DNA of 64,000 nucleotides from Escherichia coli (GTDB lineage Bacteria > Pseudomonadota > Gammaproteobacteria > Enterobacterales > Enterobacteriaceae). The position numbers were made by a program, and so were the translations under genes. The notes beneath the pieces were generated by a model. That model saw only the letters and a program-made list of their open reading frames with translations. It did not search any database and had not been told where the DNA came from. Below, piece after piece: positions 7,150-9,895 of the stretch (positions within the stretch are counted from its first letter, which is position 1; every line of letters starts with the position of its first letter). The stretch lies in the NCBI RefSeq assembly GCF_013122565.1, contig NZ_CP053258.1. One strand, given 5' to 3'.

Positions 7150-8499
7150 TTGGCGGGTTTTAACATCAAACATTGGTTTGCAGATGGCGCGTTTCGCACC
7201 ATTATTCGCAATAGCGCCTGGTTAGGCTCCAGTAATGTCGTGAGCGCCTTGCTGGGTCTGTTGGCGCTCTCGTGTGCCGGTAAAGGGATGACGCCCGCCA
7301 TGTTTGGCGTACTGGTGATTGTGCAATCGTACGCCAAGTCGATCAGCGATTTTATTAAGTTTCAGACATGGCAACTGGTGGTTCAGTACGGAACACCAGC
7401 ATTAACCAACAATAATCCGCAGCAATTCCGCAATGTCGTCTCATTTTCCTTCTCGCTGGATATCGTCAGCGGCGCGGTGGCGATTGTCGGCGGCATTGCC
7501 TTACTGCCATTCCTTTCCCATTCATTAGGTCTGGATGACCAAAGTTTTTGGCTGGCAGCGCTCTATTGCACGCTCATTCCTTCAATGGCTTCCTCCACGC
7601 CGACCGGCATTCTGCGTGCGGTAGATCGCTTCGATCTAATTGCTGTACAGCAAGCGACGAAACCTTTTCTGCGCGCAGCGGGGAGCGTCGTAGCCTGGTA
7701 TTTTGACTTTGGTTTTGCGGGTTTTGTTATCGCCTGGTACGCATCGAATCTGGTTGGCGGCACCATGTACTGGTGGTTTGCCGCGCGCGAATTACGTCGC
7801 AGAAATATCCATAACGCCTTCAAATTGAATCTGTTTGAGTCTGCCCGACACATTAAAGGCGCGTGGAGTTTTGTCTGGTCAACCAACATTGCCCACTCCA
7901 TCTGGTCGGCGCGTAACTCGTGCAGCACAGTGCTGGTGGGGATCGTGTTAGGACCCGCTGCCGCCGGGTTATTTAAAATCGCCATGACATTCTTCGATGC
8001 CGCCGGAACGCCAGCGGGTTTGCTGGGTAAAAGTTTTTACCCAGAGGTGATGCGTTTAGATCCGCGCACCACCAGACCGTGGTTGTTAGGTGTGAAGTCC
8101 GGTTTACTGGCGGGCGGAATTGGTATTCTGGTGGCACTCGCGGTGTTGATCGTCGGCAAGCCGCTCATTTCACTGGTGTTTGGTGTGAAGTATCTCGAAG
8201 CGTATGACCTGATTCAGGTGATGCTGGGCGCAATTGTGATTTCGATGCTGGGCTTCCCGCAGGAGTCATTGCTATTGATGGCGGGAAAACAGCGCGCTTT
8301 TCTCGTGGCGCAAACCATCGCCTCAATCGGCTACATCGTATTGCTGTTCATGTTCTGTCATCTGTTTGGCGTGCTGGGAGCAGCGTTTGCTTACTTCGGT
8401 GGGCAATGTCTGGATGTGGTGCTCTCGCTAATTCCAACCTTAAAGGCATTTTTTCAGCGCCATTCCTTGCTTTATAACGCAGCCGGAGAGAAATCCTGA
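7150..8499 (+). CDS. yghQ: Polytopic inner-membrane protein, MOP/Wzx flippase-like (YghQ); start codon uncertain (TTG 7150 or ATG 7183)
   Basis: 449-codon ORF rich in hydrophobic segments; track start is TTG directly after an in-frame stop at 7135-7137; stop overlaps next gene start. Confidence 0.7.
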   Translation: MAGFNIKHWFADGAFRTIIRNSAWLGSSNVVSALLGLLALSCAGKGMTPAMFGVLVIVQSYAKSISDFIKFQTWQLVVQYGTPALTNNNPQQFRNVVSFSFSLDIVSGAVAIVGGIALLPFLSHSLGLDDQSFWLAALYCTLIPSMASSTPTGILRAVDRFDLIAVQQATKPFLRAAGSVVAWYFDFGFAGFVIAWYASNLVGGTMYWWFAARELRRRNIHNAFKLNLFESARHIKGAWSFVWSTNIAHSIWSARNSCSTVLVGIVLGPAAAGLFKIAMTFFDAAGTPAGLLGKSFYPEVMRLDPRTTRPWLLGVKSGLLAGGIGILVALAVLIVGKPLISLVFGVKYLEAYDLIQVMLGAIVISMLGFPQESLLLMAGKQRAFLVAQTIASIGYIVLLFMFCHLFGVLGAAFAYFGGQCLDVVLSLIPTLKAFFQRHSLLYNAAGEKS

Positions 8500-9323
8500 T
8501 GATGAGAAAATATTTCCCGCTTGAGGCGAGCGAGCGTCTATTTGTTGCGATTGAAGAAGATGATGTCGTTGATGCACAGGTCAGTTTGCCGCCGACTATC
8601 GCACTAAGTTGTACCACCGAAATCATCCATGATAATTACGCGTTATGCCTGCAATTCTGGCTCAATGGCGTCAATCGCCAGGAGTTACTGCGTTTAATAT
8701 GCAAACAGGCCAAAGGCGATGAGCTGACTGCTGATGAGCGCAAACAATTTAAATACATGCGAGCGCGCTACAAGCACCTGCGTTTTGCGCAACGGCTGTA
8801 TTTAAAAAAGCATCAGGCCGGATTTTTATTCGGCAAAACGACCGTTTTTCTGGGACGTTTTCAGGACGGATTTCGTAACGGTAAGAAAAATATTGTGTCG
8901 TATTACGGCAACCTGTTACGAATTTATTTAAGCTCTCCGGTCTGGTCGTTGGTGAACTATTCATTACGCCATAGCCAGTTAGAAAGCGTAAGCGGTTTTA
9001 TTGCCTATCGGCAACAGCAAATGCATACCCTGAAAGAGATTATTGCCAAACCGCGACTAACCGGCAGGGAATTTCATGATGTGCGAAAAATCATCAGCCA
9101 GCAGGTTTCTTATTACGACACCTTAAGATCGCTTGATCCTGAAAATAAAGAGGCGTTACAGATTTCCCGCTTCCTCGCCGCCATTAATGGCCTGATGGGG
9201 GATAAACACGACGACATGGTGGCGGATGATATGGAAAACCGCCAGTCGTATGATGCACCGGTGGCGCTGGATAGCGATATTCGTCAGCGCTTAGAGCTGC
9301 TGATTTCGCGTTTTCCGCTATAA
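8499..9323 (+). CDS. Hypothetical protein, 274 aa, no recognisable motif
   Basis: ORF start overlaps yghQ stop (ATGATGA at 8497-8505), suggesting translational coupling; no signal peptide or TM segments evident. Confidence 0.6.
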   Translation: MMRKYFPLEASERLFVAIEEDDVVDAQVSLPPTIALSCTTEIIHDNYALCLQFWLNGVNRQELLRLICKQAKGDELTADERKQFKYMRARYKHLRFAQRLYLKKHQAGFLFGKTTVFLGRFQDGFRNGKKNIVSYYGNLLRIYLSSPVWSLVNYSLRHSQLESVSGFIAYRQQQMHTLKEIIAKPRLTGREFHDVRKIISQQVSYYDTLRSLDPENKEALQISRFLAAINGLMGDKHDDMVADDMENRQSYDAPVALDSDIRQRLELLISRFPL

Positions 9324-9331
9324 CCGGAGCA

Positions 9332-9895
9332 ATGATGTCATCTCGTTTGATTATTGCGCTGATTATCATGCTCTTAGCCCCGGGTGTGCAGGCACACAAT
9401 TTCGTCACTGGCAAAACGGTTACCCCCGTTTATATCCAGGAAGGCGGCGAGCTGCTTCTGAATAGCGACGACGAAATTCACTACCAAAAGTGGAACAGCA
9501 CACAATTGGCGGGAAAAGTTCGCATTATTCAGTATATCGCCGGGCGTAAGTCGGCGAAGAAAAAGAACTCACTGTTAATTAAAGCGGTTGAAGCGGCAAA
9601 CTTTCCGCAGGATCGTTTTCAGCCCACAACCATCGTGAACACCGATGATGCCATCTTTGGTACCGGCTATTTTGTCGTTGGCAAAATCGAAAAAAATAAA
9701 CGCCGCTATCCGTGGGCGCAATTCGTTATTGACGGCAATGGACTGGGACGCATTGCCTGGCGCTTGCCGGAGCAGAGTTCAACCATTCTGGTGCTGAATA
9801 AAGCCGGGCAAATTCAGTGGGCAAAGGACGGCAGCCTGACGCCGGAAGAGGTAGATCATGTCATTGCGTTGGCGCAGAAACTGATCAATGAATAA
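9332..9895 (+). CDS. Secreted/periplasmic protein with cleavable signal peptide (possibly YtfJ-like family)
   Basis: 187 aa; N-terminus MMSSRLIIALIIMLLAPGVQA|HNF is a typical Sec signal peptide; family assignment is from memory and unverified. Confidence 0.6.
   Translation: MMSSRLIIALIIMLLAPGVQAHNFVTGKTVTPVYIQEGGELLLNSDDEIHYQKWNSTQLAGKVRIIQYIAGRKSAKKKNSLLIKAVEAANFPQDRFQPTTIVNTDDAIFGTGYFVVGKIEKNKRRYPWAQFVIDGNGLGRIAWRLPEQSSTILVLNKAGQIQWAKDGSLTPEEVDHVIALAQKLINE

Follow-up and report, generated by a model that had tools for sequence, protein, structure and literature searches.

The sphingolipid locus of Caulobacter crescentus (CC_1152-CC_1168) comprises ceramide genes, the CpgA-D head-group genes, the genes of LptC2, LptF2 and LptG2, and a "potential flippase", CC_1166. 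In Caulobacter, LptF2 and LptG2 are needed for sphingolipid export, become essential when an anionic sphingolipid is made and bind the housekeeping LptB; lptF2 and lptG2 occur in many alpha- and gammaproteobacterial sphingolipid loci, and the sphingolipid operons of Escherichia coli UTI89, C. crescentus and S. wittichii have been set side by side (bioRxiv 10.64898/2026.04.12.717747, Fig. 2B). In E. coli BL21 the orthologues of spt, acpR, cerR, aasR and yghO constitute an experimentally supported ceramide set, of which the Spt (ECD_02854), AcpR and AasR proteins were assayed as enzymes (PMC9386255). A second point of comparison comes from Sulfolobus, where the polyphosphate kinase PPK3 consists of two paralogues of thymidylate kinase (dTMPK, here TMPK) whose genes neighbor that of a CHAD protein (PMC12995831), CHAD domains being polyphosphate-binding modules (10.1101/567040). 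This article describes a computational analysis of 64,000 nucleotides of E. coli DNA (contig NZ_CP053258.1 of assembly GCF_013122565.1; the whole stretch is called the window), taking as its subject three consecutive genes: yghQ, which encodes a membrane protein of the MOP superfamily, an open reading frame (ORF) for a 274-residue protein (orf274), and a gene for a 187-residue YtfJ-like protein.

The evidence is strong that the three ORFs and their operon belong to a proteobacterial sphingolipid locus. The gene order in the window is gss, pitB, yghT, yghS, yghR, yghQ and onward, within which yghS, yghR, yghQ, orf274, the ytfJ-like gene, lptF2 and lptG2 form a co-directional string of seven genes with gaps of 31, 45, -1, 8, 30 and -4 nt. 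Beside this operon are clustered spt, acpR, aasR, cerR and the gene of the bacterial ceramide synthase (bCerS), the gene content of a sphingolipid locus, and in the orthologous region RefSeq likewise lists spt, an acyl carrier protein, an epimerase-family reductase, a fatty acyl-AMP ligase and yghO immediately downstream; these five genes are the rhodobacterial dihydroceramide set. The initial annotation, which treated yghQ and the two genes after it, had missed this wider context of an LptF/LptG pair and a ceramide cluster (spt, acpR, cerR, aasR, yghO). What the Caulobacter and E. coli loci have in common is the five clustered ceramide genes and the pair of LptF and LptG paralogues; in addition CC_1166, the proposed sphingolipid flippase, is of the PF01943 type like YghQ, a likeness drawn at the family level. 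The E. coli locus differs in that it has neither LptC2 nor genes of the CpgA/B/C/D type (a DAG-kinase-like, that is diacylglycerol-kinase-like, ceramide kinase, a CDP-alcohol transferase and nucleotidyltransferases); in their place it encodes three kinases of the TMPK type, together with a CHAD-like and a YtfJ-family protein, and no such proteins are described from Caulobacter. By analogy with the systems above, the reading favored here, at a probability of roughly 55%, is that the kinases, YghQ and the CHAD-like protein would build and flip an anionic, phosphate-rich sphingolipid head group, and that the three ORFs are central to the sphingolipid locus of Enterobacterales.

All three genes lie on the plus strand: yghQ at 7150-8499 (449 codons, TTG start, TGA stop at 8497-8499), orf274 at 8499-9323 (ATG at 8499-8501, TAA at 9321-9323) and the ytfJ-like gene at 9332-9895 (187 codons). 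Compared with other Escherichia species, the ratio of nonsynonymous to synonymous substitution rates (dN/dS) is 0.03 for yghQ, 0.08 for orf274 and 0.10-0.12 for the ytfJ-like gene; selection on all three is strongly purifying, and they are not chance frames. The whole 3-kb stretch is found in 4127 of 5426 complete E. coli genomes, and the genes are considered real because of this wide presence together with the low dN/dS. The intact locus, carried by about three quarters of complete E. coli genomes, occurs in BL21, UTI89, Nissle and O157-type strains, not in K-12.

Conservation of gene order was explored in one genome per species (79 loci in 79 species), using a profile built from a 14-sequence alignment and mapping 13 E. 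coli proteins onto the loci by tblastn. YghQ is encoded directly upstream of the CHAD-like gene on the same strand in 62 of 74 loci, and the stop codon of yghQ runs into the start codon of the CHAD-like gene in 52 of 69 (34 times as ATGA), the remaining pairs being separated by at most 20 nt. Kinase-like genes are present in 62 of 65 loci, in three copies in 40 of them and in two copies in 19. The conserved core is thus composed of two or three TMPK-like paralogues, then YghQ, then the CHAD-like protein. It is carried by Enterobacterales, Rhodanobacteraceae, Sphingomonadales and Acetobacteraceae, the last two of which are known sphingolipid producers, and spt lies within 10 kb in 39 of 65 loci. 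In Luteibacter, Rhodanobacter and Dyella the order aasR-cerR-acpR-spt-yghQ-CHAD-like is colinear on one strand, while Serratia, Pantoea, Sodalis, Erwinia and Rosenbergiella have all 13 genes with the blocks rearranged, and in Sphingomonadales, whose sphingolipid genes are reported to be scattered, the four-gene core kinase-kinase-yghQ-CHAD-like stands alone, away from spt. An aminotransferase encoded beside a distant family member (locus L007) was tested as a candidate Spt and rejected. Neither the conserved coupling of YghQ to the CHAD-like protein nor the kinase-YghQ-CHAD-like core was found in the literature searched, so both are new here, as distinct from the sphingolipid locus itself, the Lpt paralogues, the annotation of YghQ as a MOP protein, the assignment of the YtfJ family and the TTG start of yghQ, which were already known or annotated.

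The protein encoded by orf274 had been described as featureless, and this stands for the single sequence, which found no match in Pfam or NCBIfam scans; it does not stand at the level of profile and fold, where a homology search identified it as CHAD-like. Its family comprises about 200 clusters at 50% identity. In a 65-sequence alignment R88, D123, H193, R196 and D238 are invariant, K92, R95, H105, K197 and H237 are each at least 90% conserved, and the motifs FKxxRARFKxLRFA, MGxLQDA, FHxxRKxISR and INGLMGxxHDxLV recur; the conserved basic positions are K85, R88, R90, K92, R95, H105, R126, H193, R196, K197 and H237, and the isoelectric point (pI) is 9.1, against a family median of 9.3. Searched against the Protein Data Bank (PDB), the family profile gave as top match, at E 8.9e-4, the CHAD domain of Ricinus (6qv5), aligned in two colinear stretches that pair the R-x3-K/R-x2-R and H-x2-R motifs of the family with the CHAD signature, and 16 of 65 relatives match the Pfam CHAD model (PF05235) at E<=0.1, the best at 2.5e-5. 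An AlphaFold2 model (mean predicted local distance difference test, pLDDT, 97.2) is all-helical and has the two-bundle CHAD fold. The protein is therefore best described, from profile and model, as a divergent CHAD-fold protein with a conserved set of basic residues; this identity of a "hypothetical" protein was not found in the literature searched and is new here. It has no signal peptide and no hydrophobic segment, hence is presumably cytoplasmic. With respect to known CHAD proteins or phosins (PF05235; 6qv5, 3e0s, 6rn5 PptA and the C-terminal domain of E. coli YgiF) it is only 10-17% identical and falls below the Pfam threshold, and its partners are a MOP transporter and TMPK-like kinases, whereas those of known CHAD proteins are TTM, PPK1, PPK2 and PPX. 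The assignment extends the CHAD fold beyond polyphosphate-granule biology; the literature search returned no paper tying CHAD to bacterial sphingolipids.

The kinases of the core are encoded in the window by yghT (4735-5427, minus strand, divergent from the operon, named "dTMP kinase" by RefSeq), yghS (5601-6314, plus strand), which is the first gene of the seven-gene operon, and yghR (6346-7104, plus strand). All three paralogues are TMPK-like P-loop proteins that keep the Walker A (GxDGxGK), DR[YF]PQ and RKPDH motifs, and the family profile finds thymidylate kinases as its best PDB matches (E 3e-7). Behind the P-loop helix they have a common insert, about 50 residues long (LGxxSGxxG...LPxIG, followed by a hydrophobic helix ending in R), which thymidylate kinases do not have and which may be a membrane- or lipid-contacting element. 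A role as a ceramide kinase of the Caulobacter type was considered for YghR/S/T and rejected, as CpgB is of the DAG-kinase/LCB5 type and not a P-loop protein.

The proximity of diverged dTMPK paralogues to a CHAD protein is shared with the PPK3 operon of Sulfolobus acidocaldarius (saci_2017-2021), which, together with the binding of polyphosphate (polyP) by CHAD domains (10.1101/567040), invites another explanation, namely that the core is a polyphosphate system, made of a PPK3-like kinase, a polyP-binding partner and an exporter or anchor, and lies near sphingolipid genes since both serve the envelope. The core on its own in Sphingomonadales and Acetobacteraceae, often next to a PmrAB/QseBC-like two-component system, would agree with this. 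The E. coli locus, however, differs from the PPK3 operon in having no ppx or sixA and in having a MOP membrane protein, and neither ppx, sixA, ppk1 nor pst genes adjoin the core in the neighborhoods of E. coli, Serratia and loci L005 and L006. Unlike the Sulfolobus rPPK3, which is inactive, all three E. coli paralogues have retained the catalytic motifs; they also carry the additional insert with its hydrophobic helix and show no specific relationship to cPPK3 or rPPK3. The family is confined to lineages that produce sphingolipids or have the genes for them; in Rhodanobacteraceae it lies colinear with spt, apparently in one operon. Furthermore, we know of no MOP transporter that moves polyP. 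A polyphosphate system is consequently considered unlikely.

A different doubt concerns the CHAD-like protein itself, which might only lend YghQ structural or regulatory support, for instance as a chaperone or plug made of a helical bundle, with a CHAD fold that is ancestral and retains no anion binding. The low identity to CHAD structures (10-17%), the failure of the E. coli protein to match the Pfam CHAD model and a pI below 7 in 6 of 65 family members speak for such a role, but the invariant residues include basic and histidine positions aligned to the CHAD signature motifs, and kinases of two unrelated folds repeatedly accompany the domain, which makes a purely structural function rather improbable. 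Other arrangements of the CHAD-like domain were also observed. It occurs as tandem gene duplicates in Luteibacter, as a two-domain fusion in P0124 and with N-terminal signal peptides in P0184, P0236 and P0239, while P0251 and P0268 are secreted proteins of about 980 residues with two CHAD-like copies behind an APH/choline-kinase-like kinase; P0256 and the loci L044 (10001-11757) and L051 (9152-10816) belong to the same list. The APH/choline-kinase-like domains of the long fusion proteins came from Pfam, the NCBIfam scan of these proteins being uninformative.

The 187-residue protein is a clear member of the YtfJ_HI0045 family (TIGR01626, 213 bits against a cutoff of 151; PF09695, E 3e-59) and is predicted to be Sec-exported and periplasmic. 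Its N-terminus, MMSSRLIIALIIMLLAPGVQA followed by HNF, is built like a Sec signal peptide, with n, h and c regions and with V and A at positions -3 and -1; in a rule-based reading it comprises R5, a hydrophobic core at residues 6-16 and cleavage between VQA and H, and the cleavage motif, A-x-A and then HNF with the cut after the second A, is conserved in 17 orthologues. No solved relative was detected by sequence among PDB chains, and the ytfJ literature searched reports no function. The predicted positions of the three products agree with the cytoplasmic, inner-membrane and periplasmic locations that the initial annotation had assigned to the 274-residue protein, YghQ and the YtfJ-like protein, respectively, and from which it had suggested that the three genes form a self-contained trans-envelope handling module. 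The part of that proposal that stands is an envelope lipid system; the three genes as its unit do not survive the comparison across 79 species. They follow one another almost without gaps (an overlap of 1 nt, then a spacing of 8 nt), and their order is kept in most Enterobacterales. Nevertheless, the YtfJ-like gene is found in 34 of 65 loci, in Enterobacterales only, where it travels with LptF2/G2 (33 of 65, equally restricted to Enterobacterales), and lies on the opposite strand in Sodalis (L015), while the genes that accompany yghQ and the CHAD-like gene are those of the kinases, in 62 of 65 loci. A three-gene unit, which also leaves aside the flanking kinase, Lpt and ceramide genes, has accordingly little probability.

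YghQ (449 residues) is predicted to be an inner-membrane protein with about 12 transmembrane (TM) helices in two six-helix bundles and the MOP-transporter fold (PST/Wzx-like), within the 10-14 helices foreseen for a MOP flippase. The flippase-like character that had been attributed to it, with similarity to the MOP/Wzx family, agrees with this fold and with matches to Pfam Polysacc_synt (PF01943 and PF13440, E 2.7e-8 and 1.3e-7), the same families that its orthologues match. RefSeq names it "lipopolysaccharide biosynthesis protein". Sequence searches of PDB chains, with the single sequence and with a profile, gave no match. The fold and the number of helices are those of the MOP lipid flippases WzxE and MurJ, by analogy with which a role as lipid flippase is plausible. 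The known lipid substrates of WzxE/MurJ-type flippases carry a diphosphate, which fits a phosphate-rich lipid as the substrate of YghQ. Unlike these flippases, YghQ has no adjacent glycan-assembly genes (glycosyltransferase, Wzy and initiating transferase genes are absent from the yghQ neighborhoods of E. coli, Serratia and L005), and a conserved N-terminal amphipathic motif, KHWFxDGxFR, and an obligatory CHAD-like partner are specific to its family. That YghQ flips an undecaprenyl-diphosphate-linked sugar unit like any ordinary Wzx protein and has unrelated neighbors, as its place within Polysacc_synt, the identity of 15% to WzxE, its closest solved relative by sequence identity, and nearby glycosyltransferase genes in loci L006 and L080 could suggest, is very improbable in view of a score of 34.1 bits against the cutoff of 273 of the NCBIfam "MOP flippase family protein" model, the absence of glycosyltransferase, Wzy, Wzz and initiating phosphotransferase genes from the loci of Enterobacterales, Rhodanobacteraceae and most Sphingomonadales, and a conserved translational coupling to a CHAD-like gene for which we know of no counterpart in O-antigen or exopolysaccharide clusters.

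If the core does build and flip a phosphate-rich sphingolipid head group, the following sequence of events can be proposed. Ceramide from the neighboring enzymes would gain an anionic head group at the cytoplasmic face through YghR/S/T, which are suggested as head-group makers since phosphoanhydride bond formation on an acceptor phosphate is the chemistry of the TMPK fold; the substrates assigned to these kinases are hypotheses drawn by analogy. The CHAD-like protein, made in fixed proportion with YghQ, would retain the polyanion, whether donor or product, on the transporter's cytoplasmic side, and YghQ would flip the finished lipid to the periplasmic leaflet. In Enterobacterales, LptF2 and LptG2, presumably powered by the housekeeping LptB as in Caulobacter, would then extract the lipid towards the outer membrane, with the periplasmic YtfJ-like protein as a putative lineage-specific accessory. 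A more speculative and, in our estimate, quite unlikely extension is that the ceramide of E. coli and of other proteobacteria with sphingolipid genes bears a di-, tri- or oligophosphate chain as its head group, built by YghR/S/T through successive PPK3-like phosphoanhydride formation and held by a CHAD-like protein docked on YghQ, the lipid being flipped by YghQ and delivered by LptB2F2G2; if true, oligophosphate ceramide would be a strongly anionic, lipid A-like surface lipid at the outer membrane. The CHAD-fold identity and a kinase/YghQ/CHAD-like core conserved from Sphingomonas to Escherichia provide in any case a concrete biochemical hypothesis for the "hypothetical protein next to yghQ".

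Several observations weigh against a phosphate-rich head group made and flipped by the core. Binding of polyphosphate or phospholipid by the CHAD-like protein is a hypothesis by analogy, and the E. coli protein misses every Pfam CHAD threshold. The kinases resemble PPK3 no more closely than they do ordinary thymidylate kinases, the homologue of the PPK3 catalytic subunit (2plr/5h70) matching YghR/S/T at E 0.007 and over the P-loop only. In Sphingomonadales the core lies away from spt, so that the link to sphingolipids there is one of taxonomy only, and in the metagenomic locus L006 the core adjoins CpgB- and CpgD-like genes and so does not merely stand in for the head-group genes of Caulobacter. 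The accessory role of the YtfJ-like protein is suggested by co-occurrence alone. In the strain of the window a deletion of 28 codons in spt may impair the pathway. Finally, the literature searched reports no E. coli lipid product of the locus and no experiment on full-length yghQ, the 274-residue protein gene or the ytfJ-like gene.

The boundaries of the three genes are largely those of the initial annotation. A TAA is read at 7135-7137, the in-frame stop that had been placed before yghQ; the yghQ stop and the orf274 start share one base in TGATG (8497-8501), giving the 1-nt overlap that had been noted; and the ytfJ-like gene, for which a signal peptide had been predicted, opens with ATGATG at 9332, 8 bases after the orf274 stop. 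RefSeq has the same three genes and the same TTG for yghQ, and places the ytfJ-like start at the second ATG (9335). The one reading that had to be corrected is the next ATG of yghQ, given as 7183: positions 7183-7185 are GAT (Asp12), the ATG that begins one base later (7184-7186) belongs to another frame, and in the frame of yghQ no ATG comes before codon 47, within TM1. TTG at 7150, proposed from the outset as the possible yghQ start, is well supported from sequence comparison, since it is the sole canonical start that retains the conserved YghQ N-terminus; a Shine-Dalgarno-like AAGGTCAGG can be read at 7136-7144 (plus strand) with a spacer of 5 nt. In about 60 orthologues of other genera an ATG stands where E. 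coli has ATC (Ile6) and the proteins start MKHWFSDGAFR, strong conservation of YghQ setting in exactly at this position. All Escherichia species examined have ATC there and TTG five codons upstream, and Serratia has ATG at both positions (MAGFTMKHWF). The use of TTG in Escherichia appears from these alignments to reflect an ATG-to-ATC change in the Escherichia lineage, a history that was not found in the literature searched and is new here.

Downstream of the ytfJ-like gene the operon continues on the plus strand with lptF2 (9926-10996; TIGR04407, 318 bits against a cutoff of 230) and lptG2 (10993-12072; TIGR04408, 308 bits against 240), the start of which overlaps lptF2 by 4 nt. RefSeq gives these LptF and LptG paralogues the plain names "lptF" and "lptG", which follow from exceeding the equivalog cutoffs and are likely an over-annotation because the genes sit in a sphingolipid locus. 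A perfect, G+C-rich hairpin of 16 bp at 12070-12104 occupies the 34 nt that separate the convergent genes lptG2 and spt and is probably a bidirectional terminator; apart from it, promoter and terminator scans of the region remained at chance level, and this includes a promoter-like site at 5523-5551 upstream of yghS, as such sites are not above chance in the region. The ceramide genes follow on the minus strand with spt (12107-13195, serine palmitoyltransferase), acpR (13195-13443, specialised acyl carrier protein), cerR/epi (13475-14389, NAD-dependent reductase) and aasR (14386-16110, acyl-AcpR synthetase, a fatty acyl-AMP ligase), the last three as described previously (PMC9386255), and on the plus strand with yghO (16478-17620), a homologue of bacterial ceramide synthase (aca/bCerS).

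The spt gene of the window is without 84 bp (28 codons, in frame, at about residues 36-63) and encodes 362 residues instead of 390, with a 9-bp direct repeat at the deletion junction (13081-13089). The extra 84 bp are present in 39 of 39 E. coli genomes sampled evenly across 4115 matches, so that the deletion allele is rare or private; it may weaken the enzyme that opens the pathway.

K-12-type genomes have an IS5-associated deletion that extends from yghQ codon 355 to the start of yghO, as in strain gw25 (locus L002, IS5 replacement at 6151-8345). The published phenotypes of K-12 yghQ consequently concern a truncated pseudogene, and yghR, yghS and yghT are orphaned kinases in these strains. 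The literature on yghQ/R/S/T is from K-12 only, with nothing on function; it includes data on chlorhexidine and on silkworm virulence, and caution is needed in reading "yghQ" phenotypes that belong to an IS5-truncated remnant.

Two further arrangements were noted around the core. In locus L006 (12385-15100) it adjoins a DAGK_cat gene (CpgB-like) and an NTP_transf_3 gene (CpgD-like), and three genes for glycosyltransferases lie upstream; the core is thus compatible with the presence of ceramide-phosphoglycerate genes of the Caulobacter type. In 12-14 of 38 non-enterobacterial loci a divergent two-component system adjoins the kinase-yghQ-CHAD-like operon (L005, 3128-5157; L058, 6282-7025; L061, 4784-6913; and other Sphingomonadales loci), the best NCBIfam matches of which, PmrA/PmrB and QseB/QseC, are below the cutoffs; its presence hints at a regulation by envelope charge or cationic stress.

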